Positions 1 to 48,162 of a stretch of DNA of 64,000 bases are shown here, in pieces. Every line of letters begins with the position of its first letter. The first letter of the stretch is position 1. The DNA is taken from contig NC_092678.1 in assembly GCF_964355755.1 (NCBI RefSeq), forward strand, positions 11,158,352 to 11,222,351, read 5' to 3'. Under the pieces are notes generated by a model. That model was not told where the DNA came from, ran no database searches, and saw nothing but the letters and a program-made list of their open reading frames with translations. A program made the position numbers and the translations under genes. The DNA comes from Antedon mediterranea (Eukaryota > Animalia > Echinodermata).

Positions 1-3000
1 TGATTAATTACTGGCCATTGTATTGATTTGTACCATTGAATGGAACAAAATGATTAATTACTGGCCATTGTATTGAGTTGTACCATTGAATGGAACAAAA
101 TGATTAATTACTGGCCATTGTATTGAGTTGTACCATTGAATGGAACAAAATGATTAATTACTGGCCATTGTATTGAGTTGTACCATTGAATGGAACAAAA
201 TGATTAATTACTGGCCATTGTATTGAGTTGTACCATTGAATGGAGCAAAATGCTTAATTACTGGCCATTGTATTGAGTTGTGCCATTGAATGGAACAAAA
301 TGCTTAATTACTGGCCATTGTATTGAGTTGTACCATTGAATGGAACAAAATGATTAATTACTAACCATTGTATTGAGTTGTACCATTGAATGGAACAAAA
401 TGATTACTTACTGGCCATTTTATTGAGTTGTACCATTGAAGGGAACAAATGATTAATTACTGGCCATTGTATTGAGTTGTACCATTGAATGGAACAAAAT
501 GATTAATTACTGGCCATTGTATTGAGTTTTACCATTGAATGGAACAAAATGATTAATTACTGGCCATTGTATTGAGTTGTACCATTGAATGGAACAAAAT
601 GATTAATTACTGGCCATTGTATTGAGTTGTACCATTGAATGGAACGAAATGATTAATTACTGGCAATTGTATTGAGTTGTACCATTGAATGGAACAAAAT
701 GATTAATTATTGGCCATTGTATTGAGTTGTACTATTGAATGGAACAAAATGATTAATTACTAACCATTGTATTGAGTTGTACCATTGAATGGAACAAAAT
801 GATTAATTACTGACCATTGAATGGAACAAAATGATTAATTACTGGCCATTGTATTGAGTTGTACCATTGAATGGAACAAAATGATTAATTACTGGCCATT
901 GTATTGAGTTGTACCATTGAATGGAACAAAATGATTAATTACTGGCAATTGTATTGAGTTGTACCATTGAATGGAACAAACTGATTAATTACTGGCCATT
1001 GTATTGAGTTGTACCATTGAATGGAACAAAATGATTAATTACAGGCCATTGTATTGAGTTTTACCATTGAATGGAACAAAATGATTAATTACTGGCCATT
1101 GTATTGAGTTGTACCATTGAATGGAACAAAATGATTAATTACTGGCCATTGTATTGAGTTGTACCATTGAATGGAACGAAATGATTAATTACTGGCCATT
1201 GTATTGAGTTGTACCATTGAATGGAACAAAATGATTAATTACTAACCATTGTATTGGGTTGTACCATTGAATGGAACAAAATGATTACTTACTGGCCATT
1301 TTATTGAGTTGTACCATTGAAGGGAACAAATGATTAATTACTGGCCATTGTATTGAGTTGTACCATTGAATGGAACAAAATGATTAATTACTGGCCATTG
1401 AATTGAGTTGTACCATTGAATGGAACAAAATGATTAATTACTGGCCATTGTATTAAGTTGTACCATTGAATGGAAAAAAATGATTAATTACTGGCCATTG
1501 TATTGAGTTGTACCATTGAATGGAACAAAATGATTAATTATTGGCCATTGTATTGAGTTGTACTATTGAATGGAACAAAATGATTAATTACTAACCATTG
1601 CATTGAGTTGTACTATTGAATGGAACAAAATGATTAATTACTAACCATTGTATTGAGTTGTACCATTGAATGGAACAAAATGATTAATTACTGACCATTG
1701 AATGGAACAAAATGATTAATTACTGGCCATTGTATTGAGTTGTACCATTGAATTGAACAAAATGATTAATTACTGGCCATTGTATTGAATTGTGCTATTG
1801 AATTGAACAAAATGATTAATTACTGGCCATTGTATTGAGTTGTACCATTGAATGGAACAAAATGATTAATTACTGGCCATTGTATTGAGTTGTACCATTG
1901 AATGGAACAAAATGATTAATTACTGGCCATTGTATTGAGTTGTACCATTGAATGGAACGAAATGATTAATTACTGGCCATTGTATTGAGTTGTACCATTG
2001 AATGGAACAAAATGATTAATTACTAACCATTGTATTGAGTTGTACCATTGAATGGAACAAAATGATTAATTACTAACCATTGTATTGAGTTGTACCATTG
2101 AATGGAACAAAATGATTAATTACTAACCATTGTATTGGGTTGTACCATTGAATGGAACAAAATGATTACTTACTGGCCATTTTATTGAGTTGTACCATTG
2201 AAGGGAACAAATGATTAATTACTGGCCATTGTATTGAGTTGTACCATTGAATGGAACAAAATGATTAATTACTGGCCATTGAATTGAGTTGTACCATTGA
2301 ATGGAACAAAATGATTAATTACTGGCCATTGTATTAAGTTGTACCATTGAATGGAAAAAAATGATTAATTACTGGCCATTGTATTGAGTTGTACCATTGA
2401 ATGGAACAAAATGATTAATTATTGGCCATTGTATTGAGTTGTACTATTGAATGGAACAAAATGATTAATTACTAACCATTGCATTGAGTTGTACTATTGA
2501 ATGGAACAAAATGATTAATTACTAACCATTGTATTGAGTTGTACCATTGAATGGAACAAAATGATTAATTACTGACCATTGAATGGAACAAAATGATTAA
2601 TTACTGGCCATTGTATTGAGTTGTACCATTGAATGGAACAAAATGATTAATTACTGGCCATTGTATTGAGTTGTACCATTGAATGGAACAAAATGATTAA
2701 TTACTGGCCATTGTATTGAGTTGTACCATTGAATGGAGCAAAATGCTTAATTACTGGCCATTGTATTGAGTTGTACCATTGAATGGAACAAAATGCTTAA
2801 TTACTGGCCACTGTATTGAGTTGTACCATTGAATGGAACAAAATGATTAATTACTGGCCATTGTATTGATTTGTATCATTGAATGGAACAAATGATTAAT
2901 TACTGGCCATTGTATTGAGTTGTACCATTGAATGGAACTAACTGATTAATTACTGGCCATTGTATTGACTTGTACCATTGAATGGAACAAAATGATTAAT

Positions 3001-6000
3001 TACTGGCCATTGTATTGAGTTGTACCATTGAATGGAACGAAATGATTAATTACTGGCCATTGTATTGAGTTGTACCATTGAATGGAACAAAATGATTAAT
3101 TACTAACCATTGTATTGAGTTGTACCATTGAATGGAACAAAATGATTAATTACTGGCCATTGAATTGAGTTGTACCATTGAATGGAACAAAATGATTAAT
3201 TACTGGCCATTGTATTGATTTGTACCCTTGAATGGAACAAAATGATTAATTACTGGCCATTGAATTGAGTTGTACCATTGAATGGAACAAAATGATTAAT
3301 TACTGGCCATTGTATTGAGTTGTACCATTGAATGGAACAAAATGATTAATTACTGGCCATTGTATTGAGTTGTACCATTGAATGGAACAAAATGATTAAT
3401 TACTGGCCATTGTATTGAGTTGTACCATTGAATGGAACAAAATGATTAATTACTGGCCATTGTATTGAGTTGTACCATTGAATGGAGCAAAATGCTTAAT
3501 TACTGGCCATTGTTTTGAGTTGTGCCATTGAATGGAACAAAATGCTTAATTACTGGCCATTGTATTGAGTTGTACCATTGAATGGAACAAAATGATTAAT
3601 TACTAACCATTGTATTGAGTTGTACCATTGAATGGAACAAAATGATTGATTACTGACCATTGTATTGAGTTGTACCATTGAATGGAACAAAATGATTAAT
3701 TACTGGCCATTTTATTGAGTTGTACCATTGAAGGGAACAAATGATTAATTACTGGCCATTGTATTGAGTTGTACCATTGAATAGAACAAAATGATTAATT
3801 ACTGGCCATTGTATTGAGTTGTACCATTGAATGGAACGAAATGATTAATTACTGGCCATTGTATTGAGTTGTACCATTGAATGGAACAAAATGATTAATT
3901 ATTGGCCATTGTATTGAGTTGTACTATTGAATGGAACAAAATGATTAATTACTAACCATTTTATTGAGTTGTACTATTGAATGGAACAAAATGATTAATT
4001 ACTAACCATTGTATTGAGTTGTACCATTGAATGGAACAAAATGATTAATTACTGACCATTGAATGGAACAAAATGATTAATTACTGGCCATTGTATTGAG
4101 TTGTACCATTGAATTGAACAAAATGATTAATTACTGGCCATTGTATTGAGTTGTGCCATTGAATTGAACAAAAAGATTAATTACTGGCCATTGTATTGAG
4201 TTGTACCATTGAATGGAACAAAATGATTAATTACTGGCCATTGTATTGACTTGTACCATTGAATGGAACAAAATGATTAATTACTGGCCATTGTATTGAG
4301 TTGTACCATTGAATGGAACGAAATGATTAATTACTGGCCATTGTATTGAGTTGTACCATTGAATGGAACAAAATGATTAATTACTAACCATTGTATTGAG
4401 TTGTACCATTGAATGGAACAAAATGATTAATTACTGGCCAATGAATTGAGTTGTACCATTGAATGGAACAAAATGATTAATTACTGGCCATTGTATTGAG
4501 TTGTACCCTTGAATGGAACAAAATGATTAATTACTGGCCATTGAATTGAGTTGTACCATTGAATGGAACAAAATGATTAATTACTGTCCATTGTATTAAG
4601 TTGTACCATTGAATGGAACAAAATGATTAATTATTGGCCATTGTATTGAGTTGTACCATTGAATGGAACAAAATGATTAATTACTGGCCATTGAATTGAG
4701 TTGTACCATTGAATGGAACAAAATGATTAATTACTGGCCATTGTATTAAGTTGTACCATTGAATGGAAAAAAATGATTAATTACTGGCCATTGTATTGAC
4801 TTGTACCATTGAATGGAACAAAATGATTAATTACTGGCCATTGTATTGAGTTGTACCATTGAATTGAACAAAATGATTAATTACTGGCCATTGTATTGAG
4901 TTGTACCATTGAATGGAACAAAATGATTAATTACTGGCGATTGTATTGAGTTGTACCATTGAATGGAACAAAATGATTAATTACTGGCCATTGTATTGAG
5001 TTGTACCATTGAATGGAACAAAATGATTAATTACTGGCCATTGTATTGAGTTGTACCATTGAATGGAGCAAAATGCTTAATTACTGGCCATTGTATTGAG
5101 TTGTACCATTGAATGGAACAAAATGCTTAATTACTGGCCATTGTATTGAGTTGTACCATTGAATGGAACAAAATGATTAATTACTGGCCATTGTATTGAT
5201 TTGTATCATTGAATGGAACAAATGATTAATTACTGGCCATTGTATTGAGTTGTACCATTGAATGGAACTAACTGATTAATTACTGGCCATTGTATTGACT
5301 TGTACCATTGAATGGAACAAAATGATTAATTACTGGCCATTGTATTGAGTTGTACCATTGAATGGAACGAAATGATTAATTACTGGCCATTGTATTGAGT
5401 TGTACCATTGAATGGAACAAAATGATTAATTACTGGCCATTGTATTGAGTTGTACCCTTGAATGGAACAAAATGATTAATTACTGGCCATTGAATTGAGT
5501 TGTACCATTGAATGGAACAAAATGATTAATTACTGTCCATTGTATTAAGTTGTACCATTGAATGGAACAAAATGATTAATTATTGGCCATTGTATTGAGT
5601 TGTACCATTGAATGGAACAAAATGATTAATTACTGGCCATTGAATTGAGTTGTACCATTGAATGGAACAAAATGATTAATTACTGGCCATTGTATTAAGT
5701 TGTACCATTGAATGGAAAAAAATGATTAATTACTGGCCATTGTATTGACTTGTACCATTGAATGGAACAAAATGATTAATTACTGGCCATTGTATTGAGT
5801 TGTACCATTGAATTGAACAAAATGATTAATTAATTACTGGCCATTGTATTGAGTTGTACCATTGAATGGAACAAAATGATTAATTACTGGCGATTGTATT
5901 GAGTTGTACCATTGAATGGAACAAAATGATTAATTACTGGCCATTGTATTGAGTTGTACCATTGAATGGAACAAAATGATTAATTACTGGCCATTGTATT

Positions 6001-9000
6001 GAGTTGTACCATTGAATGGAGCAAAATGCTTAATTACTGGCCATTGTATTGAGTTGTACCATTGAATGGAACAAAATGCTTAATTACTGGCCATTGTATT
6101 GAGTTGTACCATTGAATGGAACAAAATGATTAATTACTGGCCATTGTATTGATTTGTATCATTGAATGGAACAAATGATTAATTACTGGCCATTGTATTG
6201 AGTTGTACCATTGAATGGAACTAACTGATTAATTACTGGCCATTGTATTGACTTGTACCATTGAATGGAACAAAATGATTAATTACTGGCCATTGTATTG
6301 AGTTGTACCATTGAATGGAACGAAATGATTAATTACTGGCCATTGTATTGAGTTGTACCATTGAATGGAACAAAATGATTAATTACTAACCATTGTATTG
6401 AGTTGTACCATTGAATGGAACAAAATGATTAATTACTGGCCATTGAATTGAGTTGTACCATTGAATGGAACAAAATGATTAATTACTGGCCATTGTATTG
6501 ATTTGTACCCTTGAATGGAACAAAATGATTAATTACTGGCCATTGAATTGAGTTGTACCATTGAATGGAACAAAATGATTAATTACTGGCCATTGTATTG
6601 AGTTGTACCATTGAATGGAACAAAATGATTAATTACTGGCCATTGTATTGAGTTGTACCATTGAATGGAACAAAATGATTAATTACTGGCCATTGTATTG
6701 AGTTGTACCATTGAATGGAACAAAATGATTAATTACTGGCCATTGTATTGAGTTGTACCATTGAATGGAGCAAAATGCTTAATTACTGGCCATTGTATTG
6801 AGTTGTGCCATTGAATGGAACAAAATGCTTAATTACTGGCCATTGTATTGAGTTGTACCATTGAATGGAACAAAATGATTAATTACTAACCATTGTATTG
6901 AGTTGTACCATTGAATGGAACAAAATGATTACTTACTGGCCATTTTATTGAGTTGTACCATTGAAGGGAACAAATGATTAATTACTGGCCATTGTATTGA
7001 GTTGTACCATTGAATGGAACAAAATGATTAATTACTGGCCATTGTATTGAGTTTTAACATTGAATGGAACAAAATGATTAATTACTGGCCATTGTATTGA
7101 GTTGTACCATTGAATGGAACAAAATGATTAATTACTGGCCATTGTATTGAGTTGTACCATTGAATGGAACGAAATGATTAATTACTGGCAATTGTATTGA
7201 GTTGTACCATTGAATGGAACAAAATGATTAATTACTGACCATTGAATGGAACAAAATGATTAATTACTGGCCATTGTATTGAGTTGTACCATTGAATGGA
7301 ACAAAATGATTAATTACTGGCCATTGTATTGAGTTGTACCATTGAATGGAACAAAATGATTAATTACTGGCAATTGTATTGAGTTGTACCATTGAATGGA
7401 ACAAACTGATTAATTACTGGCCATTGTATTGAGTTGTACCATTGAATGGAACAAAATGATTAATTACAGGCCATTGTATTGAGTTTTACCATTGAATGGA
7501 ACAAAATGATTAATTACTGGCCATTGTATTGAGTTGTACCATTGAATGGAACAAAATGATTAATTACTGGCCATTGTATTGAGTTGTACCATTGAATGGA
7601 ACGAAATGATTAATTACTGGCCATTGTATTGAGTTGTACCATTGAATGGAACAAAATGATTAATTACTAACCATTGTATTGGGTTGTACCATTGAATGGA
7701 ACAAAATGATTACTTACTGGCCATTTTATTGAGTTGTACCATTGAAGGGAACAAATGATTAATTACTGGCCATTGTATTGAGTTGTACCATTGAATGGAA
7801 CAAAATGATTAATTACTGGCCATTGTATTGAGTTGTACCATTGAATGGAACAAAATGATTAATTACTGGCCATTGTATTGAGTTGTACCATTGAATGGAG
7901 CAAAATGCTTAATTACTGGCCATTGTATTGAGTTGTACCATTGAATGGAACAAAATGCTTAATTACTGGCCATTGTATTGAGTTGTACCATTGAATGGAA
8001 CAAAATGATTAATTACTGGCCATTGTATTGATTTGTATCATTGAATGGAACAAATGATTAATTACTGGCCATTGTATTGAGTTGTACCATTGAATGGAAC
8101 AAACTGATTAATTACTGGCCATTGTATTGAGTTGTACCATTGAATGGAACAAAATGATTAATTACTGGCCATTGTATTGAGTTTTACCATTGAATGGAAC
8201 AAAATGATTAATTACTGGCCATTGTATTGAGTTGTACCCTTGAATGGAACAAAATGATTAATTACTGGCCATTATATTGAGTTGTACCATTGAATGGAAC
8301 AAAATGATTAATTACTGGCCATTGTATTGAGTTGTACCATTGAATGGAACAAAATGATTAATTACTGGCAATTGTATTGAGTTGTACCATTGAATGGAAC
8401 AAACTGATTAATTACTGGCCATTGTATTGAGTTGTACCATTGAATGGAACAAAATGATTAATTACAGGCCATTGTATTGAGTTTTACCATTGAATGGAAC
8501 AAAATGATTAATTACTGGCCATTGTATTGAGTTGTACCATTGAATGGAACAAAATGATTAATTACTGGCCATTGTATTGAGTTGTACCATTGAATGGAAC
8601 GAAATGATTAATTACTGGCCATTGTATTGAGTTGTACCATTGAATGGAACAAAATGATTAATTAATAACCATTGTATTGGGTTGTACCATTGAATGGAAC
8701 AAAATGATTACTTACTGGCCATTTTATTGAGTTGTACCATTGAAGGGAACAAATGATTAATTACTGGCCATTGTATTGAGTTGTACCATTGAATGGAACA
8801 AAATGATTAATTACTGGCCATTGAATTGAGTTGTACCATTGAATGGAACAAAATGATTAATTACTGGCCATTGTATTAAGTTGTACCATTGAATGGAAAA
8901 AAATGATTAATTACTGGCCATTGTATTGAGTTGTACCATTGAATGGAACAAAATGATTAATTATTGGCCATTGTATTGAGTTGTACTATTGAATGAAACA

Positions 9001-9890
9001 AAATGATTAATTACTAACCATTGCATTGAGTTGTACTATTGAATGGAACAAAATGATTAATTACTAACCATTGTATTGAGTTGTACCATTGAATGGAACA
9101 AAATGATTAATTACTGACCATTGAATGGAACAAAATGATTAATTACTGGCCATTGTATTGAGTTGTACCATTGAATTGAACAAAATGATTAATTACTGGC
9201 CATTGTATTGAATTGTGCTATTGAATTGAACAAAATGATTAATTACTGGCCATTGTATTGAGTTGTACCATTGAATGGAACAAAATGATTAATTACTGGC
9301 CATTGTATTGACTTGTACCATTGAATGGAACAAAATGATTAATTACTGGCCATTGTATTGAGTTGTACCATTGAATGGAACGAAATGATTAATTACTGGC
9401 CATTCTATTGAGTTGTACCATTGAATGGAACAAAATGATTAATTACTAACCATTGTATTGAGTTGTACCATTGAATGGAACAAAATGATTAATTACTGGC
9501 CATTGAATTGAGTTGTACCATTGAATGGAACAAAATGATTAATTACTGGCCATTGTATTGAGTTGTACCCTTGAATGGAACAAAATGATTAATTACTGGC
9601 CATTGAATTGAGTTGTACCATTGAATGGAACAAAATGATTAATTATTGGCCATTGTATTGAGTTGTACCATTGAATGGAAAAAAATGATTAATTACTGGC
9701 CATTGTATTGAGTTGTACCATTGAATTGAACAAAATGATTAATTACTGTCCATTGTATTGAGTTGTACCATTGAATGGAACAAAATGATTAATTACTGGC
9801 CATTGTATTGAGTTGTACCATTGAATGGAACAAAATGATTAATTACTGGCCATTGTATTGAGTTGTACCATTGAAGGGAACAAATGATTA
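1..9890. repeat. 50-bp satellite array, segment 1 (continues beyond the window start)
   Basis: Head-to-tail copies of TGATTAATTACTGGCCATTGTATTGAGTTGTACCATTGAATGGAACAAAA with recurrent point variants plus 49-bp and 32-bp variant monomers. Confidence 0.99.
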
Positions 9891-10382
9891 TTTAATTGGA
9901 TCTACCAATTAGGTCAGCTGCTGTTGATTCCTTGTTTTAATGTACGCAGCTCTCACAACATACAGAAATTAAAAGAGTAAAATTAATGTTTAAAGTACTT
10001 CCTTTAATATGCACCATCCACAATAATGTCAACATTTGCAAAGTAATTCCAAAACAAAGTAAAATCCCAGAGATATCCAATAGTAATAAAGTGTAAATAA
10101 TAAACTGTAGAGCTAGAGCTGGTAAAAGAAAAATAATGGCTGCTGTGCACTTGCACAGACCTGTACCCTTGCACAGGCAAACAACAACTGAACAGAACAA
10201 AAGAAAATTAGGACAAAGGAAAACAAAGGAGAAACAGCACACTGTGCACACTTGGCAAATAATATGTAAATGAGAATGCAAATAAGAAAGTAACAGAATA
10301 AATGAATATTCATAGGGCAGAAACTTCTATTATAATAGGAACTAAAGTAATATAAAATAAATACATGCACTCTGCAGTAACA
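9891..10382 (-). repeat. 3' LTR of the BEL element (492 bp)
   Basis: Direct repeat of 17174-17665 at offset 7283 with no difference seen by eye. Sense strand reads TGTTACTG...CCAATTAAA. Confidence 0.97.
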
Positions 10383-10392
10383 TGGCTCCCTC
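10383..10392 (-). other. Polypurine-tract-like plus-strand priming site
   Basis: Sense GAGGGAGCCA immediately precedes the TG of the 3' LTR. Confidence 0.75.
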
Positions 10393-10593
10393 AAGGACGT
10401 AAAGTAATTACATTAACATTGAAGTCCTTGTAAATTAAATATAAAAGTTCTTGTTGAAACATAAAATAAAAGTACACTCAAAAGTTCTAATGCATATCCA
10501 AGCAAAACGTTCATATGAAAATAAACAAATTTCTTGATTCCATTTTCTCAATACGCATCAAACGGTTGGCTCCCTGACTGGGATTGGACCACT

Positions 10594-13500
10594 TCAAGAA
10601 TCACTAGCCACTAACAATATCAACTTGTGAATAGGTCGTTCGTAATGACCACTCTGATGACGAAGTTTGACCTTCCTTACGAGATCATCCTTGCTCTTCA
10701 TCACTTCCACAATTCGACCAAGCTTCCAATCATTGCGTGGTGCATTTTCATCCTTGATGATAACTATGTCACCTACACAAAAATTCCTTCTAGTGACGTT
10801 CCACGTTTGTCTGGTTTGAAGAGTGGTGAGATACTCGTTACGCCACCGATGCCAAAACTGATTGGCCATAAACTGGACCCGCCGCCATCTCCTTCGGCAA
10901 TATATATCACTTGCCTGGAATTCGCCTGGTGGTGGTAACAGAATATTTGACTTCATTGTCAATAAGTGATTCGGTGTGAGTGCTTCTGGAGCTGTAGGAT
11001 CTGAAAGATTGTTTACAGTTAACGGACGTGAATTTACAATACTCTGTACCTCACACAAAAATGTGCGAAAAGTTTCGTCACACAGATGATCTCCACAGCT
11101 ATTCAATAATGGTGTCAACGCACTGCGCACAGTCCTTATTTGACGTTCCCATACGCCTCCCATGTGACTTGCTGAGGGAACATTAAGTATCCATCTACAT
11201 TGCTGGTCACGTAGAAAGTTTTGCACTTTAGAGAACTCGTTGATCGCCCCAACAAAATTTGTTCCCTGGTCCGATCGCATCTGGTATACTGGACCTCTTA
11301 TGCTTAAGAAACGTCGTAAGGCGTTTATGAATGAATTTGTTTCTAGTGAGTTGACTGATTCAAGATGTATAGCCCGAGACGCCATACAAGTAAATATTAC
11401 ACCATATCTCTTGACTCGACTCCTTCTCTCTTTGATAATAAATGGGCCAAATAAATCAACTCCACAATATGTAAATGGGGGCGATTCCGACAGTCTATCA
11501 ATAGGTAAGTCGGCCATTTTTTGGGCACCTAGTTGACCTCTGGATCGTCTACATGTCACACATTTTCGTAAGTATTGTGAGACAGCGGATACTGCGCCAA
11601 TCAACCAGAAACCACCTTGTCTTAGACTGTTTAACGTGGCACTTCTGCCCATATGGTTTACTTTCTTGTGGTGGTGATCAACAAGAAGAGTCATTAAAGG
11701 TGAGTATTTTGGTATGATTATAGGATGTTTTATTTCCATAGGCATAGACGAATAATGTATTCGACCGCCAACTCTCAGAATTCCAGATTCATCTAGAATT
11801 GGATGTAATTTACACAAACGGGAATTCTTGAGTGCAAATTTCTTGCTTTTAGCCACATCTCGGTCCGGTAAGTCATCTTTAAAGTTTTGCAAAACATTAA
11901 ATTCAGGTAAGTAATGTTCACATTGTACAGAACGAATGATTATTGTCTCTGCTACCTGCAAATCATCAACAGTCGGTATGAAGTCACCAGATAACTTGTT
12001 CATGATGCCATAGGTTTTAAGTTTGATTTTTGCTGCAGTAATTAATCTGGTCTTAAGGTTTAAAAGTCGAGCAATCACTATCTTTACCATTTTCCATTTG
12101 GAGAACTTCTTAATTATTCTACCAATCACATCATTCTTACTTGTAATTACAGCTGTGACAGCAAACGAGCGTTTAAATTCTGTGGAAACAAGTTTTGTTG
12201 CTTCCTCGTCGACGGCATTTTGTCTCAAACATTTTAATTCACCATCCTGCTTCAGAAAATCCGGTCCACCGATCCACTTTGAAGTTGTGAGTAATTTGAG
12301 AGTTGTCAGCCCTCGGCTTGCCTCATCACTTGGGTTATCTAAAGAATTGATGTAGTGCCAATCATCAACATCAGTTTGGTCATGAATTTGTTGCACTCGA
12401 TTACCAACAAACATTTGATACCGTGTAGCTACATTCTGTATGTACCCTAGTACAACTTTACTATCGGTCCAAAAGTAATCCTTTATTGGTACTTTAATAT
12501 CCATCTCATTCTTCAGAATATGACTGACTCGAGCTGATACCACTGCTGCGTTCAACTCAAGGCGAGGTATCGTAATCTTCTTATTAGCAGGAGTTACCCT
12601 GGCCTTGCCAAGCAAAAAGGAGACGGCTGCCTTCCCATCTCCATCAATTAATCGCAAGTACGAGCATTGACCGTACGCAGCTTCACTTGCATCTGAAAAA
12701 TGATGACATTCTGCGGTCACTGCTTTAAAATTGATTGGTTTATAACAACGTGGTATGCTTAGTGTATTTAAGTTCTTAATGTCTTCGCACCATCTCTCCC
12801 ATTTGCTCTGCTCTTCGGGACCCAAAGGATCGTCCCAATCAAGATTCTGTGCACAGACACTTTGCAGAACCATCTTTGCAACAATAAGGACAGGAGCGAT
12901 AAATCCTAACGGATCGTAAATGGAGCATACGGTCTTGAGAACATTTCGTCTGGTAGGGAGATAATCATTTAGTTGCACCCTAAATTTGAACTCATCACTT
13001 TCGATGCACCACGATACGCCTAACACTCTTTCAATAGGTAGAGTGTCAGACTTCACATTGATGTTATATAATGACTTGCCTCGTTGTCCTTCTGGAATAC
13101 AGCTGAGAACTTTCCTATCATTTGAGATCCATTTATGCAGTCTCAAACCGGCTTTAGCACATATACCTGTACTATTTTGTATTAATCTTATTGCTTCATC
13201 AGCTGTAGACAGGGACTTTAAACCATCATCGACGTAGAAGTCATTCTTTATGAAGTTTGCTGCTTCTTTTCCATAGAATTTTTCGCCATCTTCAGCTGCT
13301 CTCTTCAAACCAAAATTAGAGCAACCTGGCGAGCTAGTTGCTCCGAACAGATGAACCATCATTCTATATTCAATTACTTCATTGTTTGGATTATTGTCTT
13401 TAAACCACAGGAACCGCAGCAGATCTCTATCCGCATTAGCAACAAAGAATTGATGAAACATCCCCTTGATGTCAGCCATTATTGCGACGTTCTCCTGTCT

Positions 13501-16500
13501 AAACCTCAGCAAAATTCCAAGTAGACTGTTAATTTGGTTCGGACCGGGCAACAAACGTTCATTCAATGATATACCTTGATATATGGCAGAACAATCAAAT
13601 ACCACTCTTATTTGACCAGGTTTTTTTGGGTGATATATTCCCGTGTGTGGTACATAGTTTATTCTTCCGATAACAGGCTTTGTGTCTTTAGGAACTTCTT
13701 CCGCTACATCAGCCAGTACATCCTTCATGAAACCTAAATAATCTCTCATGAACTCTGGTTGCTTTGTAAATCGTTTCCTCAGACCGTTGAATCGTTTAAC
13801 AGCCAATGGTTTATTATCAGGAAGATTTACATTTGGTGAACGGAGTGGTAATGGCATCTCGTAATGTCCGTCACTTCTCTGACGAATATTATCACTTAGG
13901 ATATTCAGAAACCGTCTTTCTTCAACTGACATGGAAACGCCAACACCTCTATCTGAAAAATCAACTTCCATCATTTCTTTAATGTGAATTGGTAATATTA
14001 TTTCTTTGTGTTTAACCGTGTTAGTAATGTAGGAGACCAAACGATGAGACGTAACATCCTCCGGTTTACAAATGGTGCCAATTATTCCCCAGCCAAGTAT
14101 AGATTGTTGAGCATATGGATGGTTTTCTTCACCAGCAATAATGTTCCGAGGTCGTAGTACACAGGGCACATTATTTCCTATCAACAAGGCAACTGGAACA
14201 TCTTGCATATGAGGAACAATTTTATCAGCAATTTGTTTTAGGTGATCCCACTTGCTCGCTACCTCTGGTGTCGGTATCTGCGACCTTTTAGCTGGTATGC
14301 TGTCTCTCGTGTAGACGGCTGGTAGAGGTATTACTTCTTTCCTGTCAAAGCTTACTATTTCGAGATCAGCTACCCTCATACAATCTATTAAGGAACATGA
14401 AGCATGCATGGTAGAAAGTTTAAGTTGTGCGGGATGAGATTTCACACCCAGTTTACCAACCATATCTTCTTTAATGAAGCAGGTATTGCTTTGTGAGTCT
14501 AAGATACAGTAAACCAGTCTTTCGGATATACTACCTCTACCTCTAACCCATACCGGTAAAATCATAGAGTTATCATTGCATACGGTTTCATCTCCGCATA
14601 CCACAGTGCATTTGCCATCCACACTCGCTAGCTTGTCGAAGTGAAGACAGGATATATGGCCTTTGCTATTACAGTGATGGCATTTCACCTCAGTCTTGCA
14701 GTGCGCTGCAAAATGACCACCAGTACCACACCTAAAGCATAATTTGGATGCAAAGATAAATTTCTTCTTTGTATGCACTGGCTGAACCTTAAAGGAATCA
14801 CATTTGTCTAATGAATGCGAGGACTTACAAAAGGGACATGTAGTAGGTGCCTCACTCTTCTTTTGGTCTGTTTTGATGTTCTCAGTTTCCGTCGATACAT
14901 CTGTTTTCAAAGTCAAATGGCTGGATTTTCTTGGTTTGTGGTCCTCCTTTGCATAACGAGAAGAATCCTTCATCTGTCTCGTAGCTTCCAGCATAGGAAG
15001 ATTAGCTTCTTCTGCCTTATTTGTCAAAAAGACAGCAAATTGCGCAAAGGATGGACTTATTTGATTCTTTTGACACGAAGCCACTATCCCTCTCCATTTG
15101 GTCTCAATGTAAACTGGCAACTTATTAAGAATCTTGCAATTCTCCGCAGAGTAGTTAAGTATGCCTAAATCTGGGATTGTGGCCTGAGCAGTTACAATTT
15201 CATTTATGTAGTCAGAAAAGTCGCGTAACCCTACGTGATCTCTTCCATTAATCTTGGGCCAGGAATCCAACTTCTTCATGAATGCCTGTGCTAAAACGGA
15301 GCTGTGACCATACCTATTGCGCAACTCTTGCCTAGCCTTCAAGTACGCATTTTCCGTTCCAAGTAACAAGTAGTTCTCCACCAAACTTTTTGGTTTACCA
15401 TCCAGATGTTGTCTTAGCAGATACAATTTTTCATTAACTGAGACCGCCTTACATTCTATCAAGGAAGAGAATGCTGCTTCCCACGTAGGAAACTTCAGTG
15501 GGTTTCCATCAAATTTCTCCACTACAACAGGCGGTAGCTTAAATGAATCGGTAAGTTGACGTAAAATGTTAGTGTCATAAATGGATACTTGATCTGGTCG
15601 CACATCAGCTGCAGGCACACCTACAGTAGACGACTGAATAGATACTACAGGTACACTCTTAGATGATGATATAGAAGTTGTGTTAATTGATGAAGTATAT
15701 AGATGCGTCGAAGGTGTAGTGCCAGATGACACACACACCGGAACAGGAAGGTAAGTCATTGGTGCTGCACTAAATGGCACGTAAGTACTAGGTACTTCTG
15801 ACGACGCACAAATTGGAACGTAATTTGACGTGGGCTGTATACTCACTGACGCTGTACAAACTGGTAAGTAATTCACAGGTACACCAACTGACGACGCACT
15901 TGTAGCGTAAGTTGACGTCGCACACACAGGCACGTAGGTAGAGGTGTAAATTGGAACGTACAGTGATGGTACATTAGCATAAATTGAACTTGCAGGAACT
16001 GTGTACGCCTGAGAAGCTGTTGAATTAATATTAAAGTTAGTTGCAGGCATTGTACTAGAAGCATTAATATTTGGGACCTTGGTAACAGTAGTGTTGCGTA
16101 CATCTGCAAATGATAATGGTTGGTTAATGTTAGTGGAAATAATATGGGTGGAAGTGTCTATTGCCGACTTTGCAATATAAGTAGAAGTGGCAGAGGTACG
16201 TACAGTCACACTCGTGGTTGTAGATACATTTGAGGAAGGAATAGTAAATTGAGCCGATTCTGCAACAGATTTAGATCTTGCCACAACTGCCGTTGGTTCA
16301 CCAACCGCCTTTGGTAGATCATCAAGAAATTTCTGCAACCCAAGAGGAATGTAATCATCGTCATCGCCACTTAGCAATGCCTGTGAGTCATCACTCACTA
16401 CATCCTCCTCACGCAAGACATCTATTCTAGCTTCCATCTTTGCTAACTCCTTCTGTTGCTCAATCAAAGTAGTTTCAAACTCAATTTCTAACATCTTCTC

Positions 16501-17142
16501 CTCCATCTTAAATTTATGTTCTGCCGCTTCACGTTCAACCTTAAGTTTATGTTCTTTAAGTTTGTGTTCCATTCCACTAAATTCTAATTCAGCTTTCAAT
16601 TCTGCCCTTTTGGCTTCTTCGAGAATTCTTAAGTGTTCCCTTTTTGCACTTGACGAAGATCTCCGGGAAGTAGAAGAAGCATTAGATGACTGTTTCGACT
16701 TCCGAAACGAATGTCTTGATGAATGAGAGTGATGTGAAGAATGTTGTGTTGAGTGCCTAGAGGAATTACTTTTTACTGAACGACATGGTTTCACACTAGC
16801 TTGTACATTACCAGATGTATCTACACCTAGATTCTCAGCTTCGGCAACTTGACCTCGTCGATGCAGATCTTTTGTCACTTCATTATGCGACAACTGCAAC
16901 ATATTAGTGTATTCTTCTCTTTCAACAACATTCAAAAGTGGACAGAGCTCTGAGTATACTTCACGCAGTATTATCTCCTGGTCTACCATGTCACTTATGA
17001 TACCCTCATTTGGTTCTACGGCGTCACTCACAGCGTCTATAAGTCTGTGCAACCGCCTCCTTTCACTAGTAAAGGCCCTAATCTTCACATCACGATTATA
17101 TTCGAGACCCTTCTCGGTTAACGTTCTCTCTCTTTTCTCCAT
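10594..17142 (-). CDS. BEL/Pao Gag-Pol polyprotein (Gag, three Cys/His knuckles, aspartic protease, RT, RNase H, integrase), 2182 aa
   Basis: FDGNPLKF Gag region; CPFC..H..C, CFRC..H..C and CHHC..H..LH knuckles; LDSQS protease; RVVFDCS, HLFGATSSP and FYVDDGL RT motifs; HHFSDAS, TIPRLEL and WTDS RNase H; GVDLFGP, SDQGTNF and GGVWER integrase; C-terminal W.LGRI..RPIHKL. No stops or frameshifts. Confidence 0.97.
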   Translation of the reverse strand: MEKRERTLTEKGLEYNRDVKIRAFTSERRRLHRLIDAVSDAVEPNEGIISDMVDQEIILREVYSELCPLLNVVEREEYTNMLQLSHNEVTKDLHRRGQVAEAENLGVDTSGNVQASVKPCRSVKSNSSRHSTQHSSHHSHSSRHSFRKSKQSSNASSTSRRSSSSAKREHLRILEEAKRAELKAELEFSGMEHKLKEHKLKVEREAAEHKFKMEEKMLEIEFETTLIEQQKELAKMEARIDVLREEDVVSDDSQALLSGDDDDYIPLGLQKFLDDLPKAVGEPTAVVARSKSVAESAQFTIPSSNVSTTTSVTVRTSATSTYIAKSAIDTSTHIISTNINQPLSFADVRNTTVTKVPNINASSTMPATNFNINSTASQAYTVPASSIYANVPSLYVPIYTSTYVPVCATSTYATSASSVGVPVNYLPVCTASVSIQPTSNYVPICASSEVPSTYVPFSAAPMTYLPVPVCVSSGTTPSTHLYTSSINTTSISSSKSVPVVSIQSSTVGVPAADVRPDQVSIYDTNILRQLTDSFKLPPVVVEKFDGNPLKFPTWEAAFSSLIECKAVSVNEKLYLLRQHLDGKPKSLVENYLLLGTENAYLKARQELRNRYGHSSVLAQAFMKKLDSWPKINGRDHVGLRDFSDYINEIVTAQATIPDLGILNYSAENCKILNKLPVYIETKWRGIVASCQKNQISPSFAQFAVFLTNKAEEANLPMLEATRQMKDSSRYAKEDHKPRKSSHLTLKTDVSTETENIKTDQKKSEAPTTCPFCKSSHSLDKCDSFKVQPVHTKKKFIFASKLCFRCGTGGHFAAHCKTEVKCHHCNSKGHISCLHFDKLASVDGKCTVVCGDETVCNDNSMILPVWVRGRGSISERLVYCILDSQSNTCFIKEDMVGKLGVKSHPAQLKLSTMHASCSLIDCMRVADLEIVSFDRKEVIPLPAVYTRDSIPAKRSQIPTPEVASKWDHLKQIADKIVPHMQDVPVALLIGNNVPCVLRPRNIIAGEENHPYAQQSILGWGIIGTICKPEDVTSHRLVSYITNTVKHKEIILPIHIKEMMEVDFSDRGVGVSMSVEERRFLNILSDNIRQRSDGHYEMPLPLRSPNVNLPDNKPLAVKRFNGLRKRFTKQPEFMRDYLGFMKDVLADVAEEVPKDTKPVIGRINYVPHTGIYHPKKPGQIRVVFDCSAIYQGISLNERLLPGPNQINSLLGILLRFRQENVAIMADIKGMFHQFFVANADRDLLRFLWFKDNNPNNEVIEYRMMVHLFGATSSPGCSNFGLKRAAEDGEKFYGKEAANFIKNDFYVDDGLKSLSTADEAIRLIQNSTGICAKAGLRLHKWISNDRKVLSCIPEGQRGKSLYNINVKSDTLPIERVLGVSWCIESDEFKFRVQLNDYLPTRRNVLKTVCSIYDPLGFIAPVLIVAKMVLQSVCAQNLDWDDPLGPEEQSKWERWCEDIKNLNTLSIPRCYKPINFKAVTAECHHFSDASEAAYGQCSYLRLIDGDGKAAVSFLLGKARVTPANKKITIPRLELNAAVVSARVSHILKNEMDIKVPIKDYFWTDSKVVLGYIQNVATRYQMFVGNRVQQIHDQTDVDDWHYINSLDNPSDEASRGLTTLKLLTTSKWIGGPDFLKQDGELKCLRQNAVDEEATKLVSTEFKRSFAVTAVITSKNDVIGRIIKKFSKWKMVKIVIARLLNLKTRLITAAKIKLKTYGIMNKLSGDFIPTVDDLQVAETIIIRSVQCEHYLPEFNVLQNFKDDLPDRDVAKSKKFALKNSRLCKLHPILDESGILRVGGRIHYSSMPMEIKHPIIIPKYSPLMTLLVDHHHKKVNHMGRSATLNSLRQGGFWLIGAVSAVSQYLRKCVTCRRSRGQLGAQKMADLPIDRLSESPPFTYCGVDLFGPFIIKERRSRVKRYGVIFTCMASRAIHLESVNSLETNSFINALRRFLSIRGPVYQMRSDQGTNFVGAINEFSKVQNFLRDQQCRWILNVPSASHMGGVWERQIRTVRSALTPLLNSCGDHLCDETFRTFLCEVQSIVNSRPLTVNNLSDPTAPEALTPNHLLTMKSNILLPPPGEFQASDIYCRRRWRRVQFMANQFWHRWRNEYLTTLQTRQTWNVTRRNFCVGDIVIIKDENAPRNDWKLGRIVEVMKSKDDLVRKVKLRHQSGHYERPIHKLILLVASDS

Positions 17143-17157
17143 AATTATTACTATATA

Positions 17158-17173
17158 ATTATTTTTCTTTTAC
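17158..17173 (-). other. Primer-binding-site position, non-tRNA type (GTAAAAGAAAAATAAT), complementary to LTR positions 17405-17420
   Basis: Directly abuts the 5' LTR, lacks TGG, and is a 16/16 reverse complement of an LTR-internal sequence. Confidence 0.75.
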
Positions 17174-17665
17174 TTTAATTGGATCTACCAATTAGGTCAG
17201 CTGCTGTTGATTCCTTGTTTTAATGTACGCAGCTCTCACAACATACAGAAATTAAAAGAGTAAAATTAATGTTTAAAGTACTTCCTTTAATATGCACCAT
17301 CCACAATAATGTCAACATTTGCAAAGTAATTCCAAAACAAAGTAAAATCCCAGAGATATCCAATAGTAATAAAGTGTAAATAATAAACTGTAGAGCTAGA
17401 GCTGGTAAAAGAAAAATAATGGCTGCTGTGCACTTGCACAGACCTGTACCCTTGCACAGGCAAACAACAACTGAACAGAACAAAAGAAAATTAGGACAAA
17501 GGAAAACAAAGGAGAAACAGCACACTGTGCACACTTGGCAAATAATATGTAAATGAGAATGCAAATAAGAAAGTAACAGAATAAATGAATATTCATAGGG
17601 CAGAAACTTCTATTATAATAGGAACTAAAGTAATATAAAATAAATACATGCACTCTGCAGTAACA
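17174..17665 (-). repeat. 5' LTR of the BEL element (492 bp)
   Basis: Matches 9891-10382. Sense ATTAAA poly(A)-like signal near 17218-17223 and a U5 hairpin at 17176-17194. Confidence 0.97.
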
Positions 17666-20600
17666 GATTAATTACTGGCCATTGTATTGAGTTGTACCAT
17701 TGAATGGAACAAAATGATTAATTACTGGCCATTGTATTGAGTTGTACCCTTGAATGGAACAAAATGATTAATTACTGGCCATTGAATTGAGTTGTACCAT
17801 TGAATGGAACAAAATGATTAATTACTGGCCATTGTATTAAGTTGTACCATTGAATGGAACAAAATGATTAATTATTGGCCATTGTATTGAGTTGTACAAT
17901 TGAATGGAAAAAAATGATTAATTACTGGCCATTGTATTGACTTGTACCATTGAATGGAACAAAATGATTAATTACTGGCCATTGTATTGAGTTGTACCAT
18001 TGAATTGAATAAAATGACTAATTACTGGCCATTGTATTGAGTTGTACCATTGAATGGAACAAAATGATTAATTACTGGCCATTGTATTGAGTTGTACCAT
18101 TGAATGGAACAAAATGATTAATTACTGGCCATTGTATTGAGTTGTACCATTGAATGGAACAAAATGATTAATTACTGGCCATTGTATTGAGTTGTACCAT
18201 TGAATGGAACAAAATGATTAATTACTGGCCATTGTATTGAGTTGTACCATTGAATGGAACAAAATGATTAATTACTGGCCATTGTATTGAGTTGTACCAT
18301 TGAATGGAACAAAATGATTAATTACTGGCCATTGTATTGAGTTGTACCATTGAATGGAGCAAAATGCTTAATTACTGGCCATTGTATTGAGTTATGCCAT
18401 TGAATGGAACAAAATGCTTAATTACTGGCCATTGTATTGAGTTGTACCATTGAATGGAACAAAATGATTAATTACTAACCATTGTATTGAGTTGTACCAT
18501 TGAATGGAACAAAATGATAACTTACTGGCCATTTTATTGAGTTGTACCATTGAAGGGAACAAATGATTAATTACTGGCCATTGTATTGAGTTGTACCATT
18601 GAATGGAACAAAATGATTACTTACTGGCCATTTTATTGAGTTGTACCATTGAAGGGAACAAATGATTAATTACTGGCCATTGTATTGAGTTGTACCATTG
18701 AATGGAACAAAATGATTAATTACTGGCCATTGTATTGAGTTGTACCATTGAATGGAACGAAATGATTAATTACTGGCCATTGTATTGAGTTGTACCATTG
18801 AATGGAACAAAATGATTAATTACTAACCATTGTATTGAGTTGTACCATTGAATGGAACAAAATGATTAATTACTAACCATTGTATTGAGTTGTACCATTG
18901 AATGGAACAAAATGATTAATTACTAACCATTGTATTGGGTTGTACCATTGAATGGAACAAAATGATTACTTACTGGCCATTTTATTGAGTTGTACCATTG
19001 AAGGGAACAAATGATTAATTACTGGCCATTGTATTGAGTTGTACCATTGAATGGAACAAAATGATTAATTACTGGCCATTGAATTGAGTTGTGCCATTGA
19101 ATGGAACAAAATGATTAATTACTGGCCATTGTATTAAGTTGTACCATTGAATGGAAAAAAATGATTAATTACTGGCCATTGTATTGAGTTGTACCATTGA
19201 ATGGAACAAAATGATTAATTATTGGCCATTGTATTGAGTTGTACTATTGAATGGAACAAAATGATTAATTACTAACCATTGCATTGAGTTGTACTATTGA
19301 ATGGAACAAAATGATTAATTACTAACCATTGTATTGAGTTGTACCATTGAATGGAACAAAATGATTAATTACTGACCATTGAATGGAACAAAATGATTAA
19401 TTACTGGCCATTGTATTGAGTTGTACCATTGAATTGAACAAAATGATTAATTACTGGCCATTGTATTGAATTGTGCTATTGAATTGAACAAAATGATTAA
19501 TTACTGGCCATTGTATTGAGTTGTACCATTGAATGGAACAAAATGATTAATTACTGGCCATTGTATTGACTTGTACCATTGAATGGAACAAAATGATTAA
19601 TTACTGGCCAATGTATTGAGTTGTACCATTGAATGGAACGAAATGATTAATTACTGGCCATTCTATTGAGTTGTACCATTGAATGGAACAAAATGATTAA
19701 TTACTAACCATTGTATTGAGTTGTACCATTGAATGGAACAAAATGATTAATTACTGGCCATTGAATTGAGTTGTACCATTGAATGGAACAAAATGATTAA
19801 TTACTGGCCATTGTATTGAGTTGTACCCTTGAATGGAACAAAATGATTAATTACTGGCCATTGAATTGAGTTGTACCATTGAATGGAACAAAATGATTAA
19901 TTATTGGCCATTGTATTGAGTTGTACCATTGAATGGAAAAAAATGATTAATTACTGGCCATTGTATTGAGTTGTACCATTGAATTGAACAAAATGATTAA
20001 TTACTGTCCATTGTATTGAGTTGTACCATTGAATGGAACAAAATGATTAATTACTGGCCATTGTATTGAGTTGTACCATTGAATGGAACAAAATGATTAA
20101 TTACTGGCCATTGTATTGAGTTGTACCATTGAATGGAACAAAATGATTAATTACTGGCCATTGTATTGAGTTGTACCATTGAATGGAGCAAAATGCTTAA
20201 TTACTGGCCATTGTATTGAGTTGTACCATTGAATGGAAAAAAATGCTTAATTACTGGCCATTGTATTGAGTTGTACCATTGAATGGAACAAAATGATTAA
20301 TTACTGGCCATTGTATTGATTTGTATCATTGAATGGAACAAATGATTAATTACTGGCCATTGTATTGAGTTGTACCATTGAATGGAACAAACTGATTAAT
20401 TACTGGCCATTGTATTGAGTTGTACCATTGAATGGAACAAAATGATTAATTACTGGCCATTGTATTGAGTTTTACCATTGAATGGAACAAAATGATTAAT
20501 TACTGGCCATTGTATTGAGTTGTACCCTTGAATGGAACAAAATGATTAATTACTGGCCATTATATTGAGTTGTACCATTGAATGGAACAAAATGATTAAT

Positions 20601-42537: not shown

Positions 42538-42802
42538 TTTACCGTGTGGTAGTACATTAAATGTGAAATTTTGAGATTTCTTGTTTTTGCCCTGAAACCA
42601 GAATTTTAACTATTGTATACATTATAGACTGCATTAACTGTTTGGTGTGTGTGCTTTATTGTGATTCTTTTTATTGTAAATTGTGTTTTTTTTTTATTAT
42701 TGTATTGCTAACCTGCCGGTTTTTAGTCATTTATTTGAACGCCATTTTGCTTAACAGCTTTGGTGAATTGATTATATTTTGTTCTTTTTCCAATACTACT
42801 TT

Positions 42803-46001: not shown

Positions 46002-48162
46002 TTGAATGGAACAAAATGATTAATTACTGGCCATTGTATTGAGTGGTACCATTGAATGGAACAAAATGATTAATTACTGGCCATTGTATTGAGTTGTACC
46101 ATTGAATGGAACGAAATGATTAATTACTGGCCATTGTATTGAGTTGTACCATTGAATGGAACAAGATGATTAATTACTGGCCATTGTATTGAGTTGTACC
46201 ATTGATTGGAACAAAATGATTAATTACTGGCCATTGCATTGAGTTGTACCATTGAATGGAACAAAATGATTAATTACTGGCCATTGCATTGAGTTGTACC
46301 ATTGAATGGAACAAAATGATTAATTACTGGCCATTGTATTTAGTTGTACCATTGAATGAAACAAAATGATTAATTACTGGCCATTGTATTGAGTTGTACC
46401 ATTGAATGGAACAAAATGATTAATTACTGGCCATTGCATTGAGTTGTACCATTGAATGGAACAAACTGATTAATTACTGGCCATTGCATTGAGTTGTACC
46501 ATTGAATGGAACAAAATGATTAATTACTGGCCATTGTATTGAGTTGTACCATTGAATGGAACAAAATGATTAATCACTGGCCATTGTATTGAGTTGTGCC
46601 ATTGAATGGAACAAAATGATTAATTACTGGCCATTGTATTGAGTGGTACCATTGAATGGAACGAAATGATTAATTACTGGCCATTGTATTGAGTTGTACC
46701 ATTGAATGGAACAAAATGATTAATTACTGGCCATTGTATTGAGTTGTACCATTGAATGGAACGAAATGATTAATTACTGGCCATTGTACTGAGTTGTATC
46801 ATTGAATGGAACAAGATGATTAATTACTGGCCATTGTATTGAGTTGTTCCATTGATTGGAACAAAATGATTAATTACTGGCCATTGCATTGAGTTGTACC
46901 ATTGAATGGAACAAAATGATTAATTACTGGCCATTGTATTTAGTTGTACCATTGAATGAAACAAAATGATTAATTACTGGCCATTGTATTGAGTTGTACC
47001 ATTGAATGGAACAAAATGATTAATTACTGGCCATTGCATTGAGTTGTACCATTGAATGGAACAAAATGATTAATTACTGGCCATTGCATTGAGTTGTACC
47101 ATTGAATGGAACAAAATGATTAATTACTGGCCATTGTATTGAGTTGTACCATTGAATGGAACAAAATGATTAATCACTGGCCATTGTATTGAGTTGTGCC
47201 ATTGAATGGAACAAAATGATTAATTACTGGCCATTGTATTGAGTGGTACCATTGAATGGAACAAAATGATTAATTACTGGCCATTGTATTGAGTTGTAGC
47301 ATTGAATGGAACGAAATGATTAATTACTGGCCATTGTATTGAGTTGTACCATTGAATGGAACAAGATGATTAATTACTGGCCATTGTATTGAGTTGTACC
47401 ATTGATTGGAACAAAATGATTAATTACTGGCCATTGCATTGAGTTTTACCATTGAATGGAACAAAATGATTAATTACTGGCCATTGTATTGAGTTGTACC
47501 ATTGAATGGAACAAAATGATTAATTACTGGCCATTGTATTGAGTTGTACCATTGAATGGAAGAAAATGATTAATTACTGGCCATTGCATTGAGTTGTACC
47601 ATTGAATGGAAGAAAATGATTAATTACTGGCCATTGTATTTAGTTGTACCATTGAATGGAACAAAATGATTAATTACTGGCCATTGTATTGAGTTGTACC
47701 ATTGAATGGAACAAAATGATTAATTACTGGCCATTGTATTGAGTTGTGCCATTGAATGGAACAAAATGATTAATTACTGGCCATTGTATTGAGTTTTACC
47801 ATTGAATGGAACAAAATGATTAATTAATGGCCATTGTATTGAGTTGTGCCATTGAATGGAACAAAATGATTAATTACTGGCCATTGTATTGAGTTTTACC
47901 ATTGAATGGAACAAAATGATTAATTACTGAGTTGTACCATTGAATGGAACAAAATGATTAATTACTGGCCATTGTATTGAGTTGTACCATTAAATGGAAC
48001 GAAATGATTAATTAATGGCCATTGTATTGAGTTGTACCATTGAATGGAACAAAATGATTAATTACTGGCCATTGCATTAAGTTGTACCATTGAATGGAAC
48101 AAAATGATTAATTACTGGCCATTGTATTGAGTTGTACCATTGAATGGAACAAAATGATTAAT
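46002..48162. repeat. 50-bp satellite array, terminal segment
   Basis: Same monomer with a distinct variant set and 600-bp periodicity. Ends abruptly at about 48162. Confidence 0.99.

Follow-up and report, generated by a model that had tools for sequence, protein, structure and literature searches.

A BEL/Pao retrotransposon that probably primes reverse transcription with its own transcript, and relatives in which splicing appears to assemble the primer

Introduction

In the Tf1 retrotransposon of S. pombe, the transcript's first 11 bases pair with its primer-binding site (PBS), and RNase H cuts the RNA between bases 11 and 12 (PMC7175516, in the part of the article available to us). According to the available parts of PMC7175516 and PMC4600332, the 5' end folds back, is cut by RNase H, and then primes synthesis on U5. 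Self-priming has been named for a small number of other lineages: the accessible sections of a survey of plant elements list Tf1/sushi, Tcn1 and TAR only, and the Tcn1 chromoviruses and plant TAR Ty1/copia elements were predicted there by a rule that asks for at least 10 bp of LTR complement starting 0-5 bp past the 5' LTR (PMC6317226). A tRNA site is also missing from fungal GalEa Copia elements and from bivalve TRIMs that lack a PBS, where the available text of PMC6934838 describes a hairpin inside the internal region instead. For the BEL/Pao elements, the ICTV profile of the Belpaoviridae terms replication poorly understood and gives tRNA priming, with an 18-nt PBS for tRNA-Arg or tRNA-Gly (PMC8742986).

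Here we describe a BEL/Pao element that departs from this profile. Like Tf1 and Tf2 of S. pombe, Tj1 of S. japonicus and the Tf1/sushi group as their sources describe them in part, it has no tRNA site, and the PBS adjoining its LTR is complementary to the LTR itself. The complement is about 11 nt long in most of its relatives, as in Tf1 (PMC7175516 and PMC4600332, available parts), and 16 nt long in the element itself. Unlike the Tf1/sushi elements, which are Ty3/gypsy chromoviruses, it is BEL/Pao by its domains; Tcn1 and TAR likewise belong to other superfamilies and other hosts, and the internal hairpins of GalEa and the TRIMs differ from the LTR complement found here. No report of self-priming in BEL elements was found among the papers listed by searches of the literature outside subscription journals and Repbase. 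The main texts of PMC3118150 and PMC6238403 do not contain the word "primer", PMC554778 uses it for PCR only, and BEL self-priming is not mentioned in the available parts of PMC3601003, PMC6934838, PMC13524379, PMC11042837 and PMC10886601.

Structure of the element

The window, by which we mean the whole 64,000-nt stretch of Antedon mediterranea DNA that was analysed, holds a full-length BEL/Pao LTR retrotransposon on its minus strand, inserted within a 50-bp satellite array (Table 1). The insertion is recent, as the LTRs are identical at 492 of 492 positions and the same TAATC is read on both sides. The LTR end at 17174 is set by the second LTR together with the target duplication, and independent contigs from runs X2, X9 and X10 also depart from the element sequence at this base. 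Deletion variants are present in runs X1 and X2, one without most of R (17221-17407) and one without 2 kb of gag (14832-16831). Both LTRs in the window finish in AA rather than CA (17174-17178 and 9891-9895), yet a clean 5-bp duplication was made; this ending is a departure from ICTV-type Belpaoviridae, and the LTRs of most relatives finish in ACA. The satellite makes up most of the window; it occupies positions 1-9890, 17666-41532 and 46002-48162, is about 95% homogeneous and contains recurring 82-bp variant units. An intact endonuclease-RT LINE frame borders it and further LINE frames are broken (42767-45796, 54200-55730 and 60390-62589, all on the plus strand).

Table 1. Features of the BEL/Pao element and its surroundings, in window coordinates
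Feature	Position	Strand	Basis
Full-length BEL/Pao element	9891..17665	-	LTR pair, domains, target duplication, satellite context
5' LTR, 492 nt, TG...AA termini	17174..17665	-	LTR pair; end backed by independent junctions
3' LTR, same as 5' LTR	9891..10382	-	0 mismatches, 492/492
Target-site duplication TAATC, upstream copy	17666..17670	-	Read on both sides
Target-site duplication TAATC, downstream copy	9886..9890	-	Read on both sides
Single gag-pol ORF, 2182 aa, ATG at 17142	10594..17142	-	Domains and motifs
Polypurine tract adjoining 3' LTR	10383..10392	-	Sequence
Putative primer-binding site, without TGG, adjoining LTR	17158..17173	-	Sequence
Predicted self-primer, 16 nt contiguous	17405..17420	-	Complement observed
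Predicted transcription start; predicted cut	17420; 17405/17404	-	Prediction from C/A step and Tf1 analogy
16-mer copy in 3' LTR	10122..10137	-	LTR identity, offset 7283
ATTAAA, likelier poly(A) signal	17286..17291	-	U/GU-rich stretch behind; putative function
Second ATTAAA	17224-17219	-	Position read; putative poly(A) function
R-side arm of possible 5-bp R-U5 helix, weak	17400..17404	-	Two possible partners
U5-side arm of R-U5 helix	17198..17202	-	Fold
U5 terminal hairpin, 7 bp	17176..17194	-	Present, not exceptional
Purine-rich stretch in early gag, competitor for 16-mer in longer folds	17058..17066	-	Folding

The element has one open frame with the Pfam domains DUF1759 (PF03564), Peptidase_A17 (PF05380), Integrase_H2C2 (PF17921) and DUF5641 (PF18701) in this order. 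By eye, gag-pol contains DSQ, YVDD, DAS and a set of acidic motifs, which we take, partly as general background, to be those of the protease, reverse transcriptase (RT), RNase H and integrase, respectively, and the RNase H motifs look intact. The motifs were also checked against those named in the available part of PMC554778. Among named proteins, the nearest share 51-59% identity over RT/RNase H and belong to echinoderms, tunicates, cnidarians and other marine invertebrates. Features by which BEL/Pao elements are recognised are found, namely domains in the order PR-RT-RH-IN, a pair of LTRs, a target-site duplication and a polypurine tract, and the single gag-pol frame, the LTR length (0.2-1.2 kb in the family) and the shortness of the polypurine tract agree with the ICTV description as well (PMC8742986). 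The tRNA-Arg or tRNA-Gly PBS of that description is what the element, along with the group of relatives described below, does not have. As a tRNA PBS is a described trait and not a phylogenetic criterion, we file the element by its proteins as a BEL/Pao variant. It falls outside Tf1/sushi, because its domains are BEL/Pao and not those of a Ty3/gypsy chromovirus Pol.

Primer-binding site and its complement in the LTR

An earlier note on this DNA had claimed that the sequence directly after the 5' LTR has no TGG, that it is a perfect 16/16 complement of a stretch inside the LTR, and that the pairing reaches the first base after the LTR. All three claims hold: the nearest TGG lies 32 nt past the LTR, the two 16-mers are exact reverse complements, and the match starts at offset 0 and continues for 16 nt. 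None of 20000 dinucleotide shuffles of the LTR gave a 16-nt match (two gave 15), and of 1000 internal decoy sites compared with the LTR none gave 16 and one gave 10. The 16-mer is of low complexity, and the window PBS also gives 11 nt against two non-cognate LTRs. The arrangement is the one that a Tf1-type rule describes (at least 10 nt of LTR complement, starting 0-5 nt past the 5' LTR, without a tRNA site). The changes listed for close variants from four runs leave the PBS, the 16-mer and the U5 hairpin untouched, in a listing that omits differences near contig ends and three indel rows; one change, at 17202, occurs in a divergent contig. With so few changes this conservation is not significant, and we do not count it as support. 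An Rfam search over 17050-17700 returned no match at E up to 1.

Relatives and covariation

Relatives were sought in genome bins (10 loci) and in metagenome contigs (the best 80 of 166 loci), and three scans of viral contigs found none. Twenty-seven of these 90 loci were scored for a self-match between LTR and PBS. We excluded near-duplicates of scored families (L016, L019, L020, L022, L024, L028, L030, L051, L057, L073, L076 and L078) as well as loci without a readable LTR or junction, and six further unscored loci (L003, L012, L014, L025, L043 and L059), with the junction placed by eye, also lack a TGG. The LTR ends of the 27 were set by a second LTR copy in eight cases, by homology in two and by motif in 17, and the motif-set subset is partly circular, as most of these ends were picked after a scan that sought the match. 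Whole animal-type BEL/Pao elements inside bacterial genome bins (L001-L010 and G001-G005), with 13 matches in one bin, most likely reflect host contamination.

An unbroken Watson-Crick match of 10-13 nt to the element's own LTR, running from the first base past the LTR, was found in 20 of the 27 relatives, while decoy sites reach 10 nt in 0-0.7% of cases (51-1000 decoys per LTR). Covariation between LTR and PBS in related families had been proposed as a check on the self-priming idea, and it was borne out: with the window element included, 21 of 28 cognate combinations reach at least 10 nt versus 11 of 734 non-cognate ones. Fifteen different PBS starts are represented, the window's among them, each matching its own LTR and rarely another's. 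If the comparison is confined to pair-defined LTR ends, six of eight relatives pass, or seven of nine with the window element. Most readable relatives thus keep the pairing with different letters, which suggests that the group likely primes with its own RNA.

Several loci deviate from this pattern. L001 has a single internal mismatch (10/11 by eye, strict score 4), and the match is perfect in its family member L062; L055 and L063 fall short at offset 0 with 8 and 9 nt, and in L036 and L053 the match sits in the 3' LTR copy, with scores of 5 and 9 for the 5' copies. A match of 10-12 nt behind a spacer of 4-5 nt was found in L002, L074, L075 and L069. These four belong to an outer part of the group, and the ends of their polypurine tracts also differ. 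For L069, a 6-bp terminal inverted repeat sets the LTR end and the self-match is 12 nt; a TGG-type assignment of this locus was ruled out, as the repeat puts the LTR end 61 nt further on. The PBS of L053, L056, L023, L055 and L077 opens with the same five letters as that of Tf1 (PMC11042837, available part), which is possibly a shared cleavage preference and possibly chance. L022 and L029 are tandem element pairs with one common LTR, the L022 pair coming from different families; they resemble the tandem products described for Tf1 in the available part of PMC11042837, but could be assembly artefacts.

A later-fetched set of 14 further regions from five genome bins, of which 13 were analysed and two have an LTR pair, provided an additional test. 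In L121, whose ends are set by its LTR pair, an 11-nt match spans a 76-nt intron, and its PBS is new to the set. L112, at 27-35% identity, has a TGG site and a self-match of at most 4 nt, and L113, L114 and L116 have TGG sites by motif, with a self-match of at most 7 nt in L113. In a tree built with FastTree only and rooted on distant TGG-type BEL elements, the self-matching elements form one group versus the TGG-type outgroups, with a FastTree local support of 0.91.

These observations also bear on the possibility that a host tRNA, a tRNA fragment or another small RNA primes at the PBS. Priming by tRNA-Arg or tRNA-Gly is what the ICTV profile gives for the Belpaoviridae (PMC8742986), and half-tRNA priming exists in Copia elements (PMC6317226 and PMC10886601, in part), but the distance of the nearest TGG from the window LTR argues against this, and the PBS starts, at least 15 in number, would each need a separate host RNA even though each matches its own LTR. 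We consider such a primer extremely improbable. The main reading of the earlier note, Tf1-like self-priming in a BEL element, is by contrast supported by the covariation and by the TGG sites of the outgroups, with priming and cleavage carried over by analogy from Tf1. We think it fairly probable that the window element uses its own transcript's first 16 bases, rather than a tRNA, to prime minus-strand synthesis. On this analogy, the element likely works like Tf1, yet it is not a member of Tf1/sushi.

Predicted introns within the LTR

In 16 of the 20 matching relatives, the complement appears only once a predicted GT..AG intron of 98-625 nt is removed from the LTR. A few bases of the complement stand before the GT donor, while its remainder comes after a pyrimidine-rich AG acceptor. 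Such an intron is not mentioned for Tf1 in the parts of the Tf1 literature available, and the blastn rule described above uses unspliced LTRs and so would miss intron-split primers. The 168-nt intron of L018 is missing, to the base, from L017 of the same family, which means that the intron is removed either in RNA or by precise loss from DNA. Contiguous primers are found in the window element, L017, L023/L055, L026 and L077/L075. These elements are dispersed among intron-bearing families in both trees, which fits repeated intron loss. No GT(A/G)A donor lies upstream of the 16-mer in the LTR of the window element. We predict that this element is one of the group's members that became intron-less secondarily, and that its primer is unusually long.

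The window 16-mer resembles the 3' end of the L007/L041 LTR introns plus exon 2, minus the AG. We considered whether it serves as the pyrimidine tract of an LTR intron that is still spliced, which the missing donor ruled out. More speculatively, the 16-mer may descend from a splice acceptor that was lost, the PBS being rewritten later, and not from precise intron loss.

Taking the relatives and the window element together, we judge the chances to be evenly balanced that in a broad BEL/Pao group the host spliceosome builds the primer for reverse transcription. A capped exon 1 of 3-6 nt would be joined across the LTR intron, and the 5' LTR would be spliced while the 3' LTR usually would not, so that splicing would gate replication. 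Intron-less members such as the window element would recur through copying of fully spliced RNA, and the PBS would be rewritten from whichever primer was used.

The same introns bear on the idea that the PBS pairs instead with the 16-mer in the 3' LTR (10137-10122), with the RNA's own 3' end priming on a circularised genome. This copy is identical to the 5' copy, but no poly(A)-like signal is met until 113 nt past the 16-mer, so the RNA would not end there, and a cut in the 3' copy would detach the R that is needed for strand transfer. Moreover, a spliced primer from the 3' copy should yield daughters without the intron, as U3 comes from the 3' LTR, yet 16 of 20 relatives retain it. Priming from the 3' end is thus very improbable.

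Predicted start site and proposed mechanism

In 8 of 17 clades, the first paired base and the base before it form a C/A step, where about 7% would be expected (p ~1e-5, with relatedness ignored), and L121 and L069 also read C/A at this position. A pyrimidine-purine step of this kind is initiator-like, and such a boundary agrees with an initiator and with rewriting of the PBS from a primer whose end is the cap. A start at the first paired base would lead to first exons of 3-6 nt in the intron-bearing relatives. First exons this short are unusual, and we regard them as the weakest link of the model. By eye, no common TATA box was seen upstream.

In the mechanism that we propose, Pol II would start at about 17420 and the capped 5' end of the RNA would fold back onto the PBS. 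Cleavage of the RNA would then follow base 16, probably through the element's own RNase H as in Tf1, and the freed 3' end would serve as primer while U5 and R are copied. For most relatives, the host would have to splice out the intron of the 5' LTR to assemble the primer. When the primer is copied into the plus strand, the PBS would be rewritten in every cycle, so that, within this model, the match is kept perfect and stops where the transcript starts.

Self-priming could also have another geometry, in which transcription starts further upstream and leaves an unpaired 5' tail, or in which the primer acts in trans from a short LTR-only transcript or a second packaged genome. An upstream start would avoid the 3-6-nt first exons. 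The sequence before the primer in L023 and L055 resembles an intron 3' end by eye, the poly(A) signals of most relatives lie only 6-82 nt past the primer end, and in folds of the element's RNA that end at 17120, starts at 17470-17480 give a better-populated duplex than a start at 17420. However, in unrelated families the match breaks off sharply at 9-13 nt, and it does so at a C/A step more often than expected; with a long primer, copying should extend further into the PBS. We therefore see these geometries as unlikely, and keep the start at the first paired base as the preferred reading.

RNA folding

For Tf1, a U5 stem-loop or R-U5 structure beside the duplex is reportedly a requirement. The earlier note had described a comparable arrangement at this locus, namely a short R-U5 helix and a U5 hairpin that form a three-way junction at the predicted cut site. 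Both the helix and the hairpin can be read in the sequence, and the minimum-energy fold of 17420-17140 contains them, but a special junction was not supported, as the structure does not go beyond shuffles: z is -1.1 for the last 50 nt of U5 in the window element, and U5 structure over 17 elements has a mean z of 0.09. The U5 hairpin is thus not supported as a conserved signal, and the R pentamer at 17404-17400 has a second possible partner near 17228-17234. Compared with Tf1, a special U5 stem is unsupported in the window element, and its start and cleavage are predicted from sequence.

The PBS duplex itself has a probability of 0.93-0.96 in folds that end at 17158-17130, but of at most 0.17 once gag to 17120 or beyond is in the fold, and it is also gone in a fold of the whole LTR. 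Forcing the duplex in the longer folds costs 0-6.5 kcal/mol at 37 C, and among 16 relatives folded, three have a duplex probability of at most 0.30. As the duplex is favoured only when the fold ends by 17130, folding is not independent support for it, and thermodynamic folding was rejected as an independent proof of the duplex because its outcome varies with the fold boundaries. In the proposed fold-back step, help from the nucleocapsid is probable, given that naked folding of the longer RNA disfavours the duplex.

The existence of competing folds for the 16-mer also allows a reading in which the pairing is real but serves something else, such as a switch in translation, splicing or packaging, or in which it arises incidentally where a pyrimidine tract lies opposite a purine-rich stretch, with priming achieved otherwise. 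The start codon is just 31 nt past the LTR, and the 16-mer and the bases that follow it read like a 3' splice site, although the LTR upstream offers no GT(A/G)A donor. Against such a role, the pairing ends exactly at the first base past the LTR in 21 of 28 elements, and no alternative primer site is visible. We hold a non-priming role to be quite improbable.

Conclusions

If self-priming is true of this element and its group, the Tf1 mechanism would have arisen independently once more, and in a superfamily without such a report in the literature searched. The predictions for the window element are exact to the base, with a start at 17420 and a cut after 17405. PBS finders that use tRNA matches only, or unspliced LTRs only, would miss the group. 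The more surprising part of the analysis is the relatives, in which splicing appears to assemble the primer. A splicing-assembled primer, if true, would couple the replication of a retrotransposon to RNA processing by its host in a manner that is undescribed in the literature consulted.
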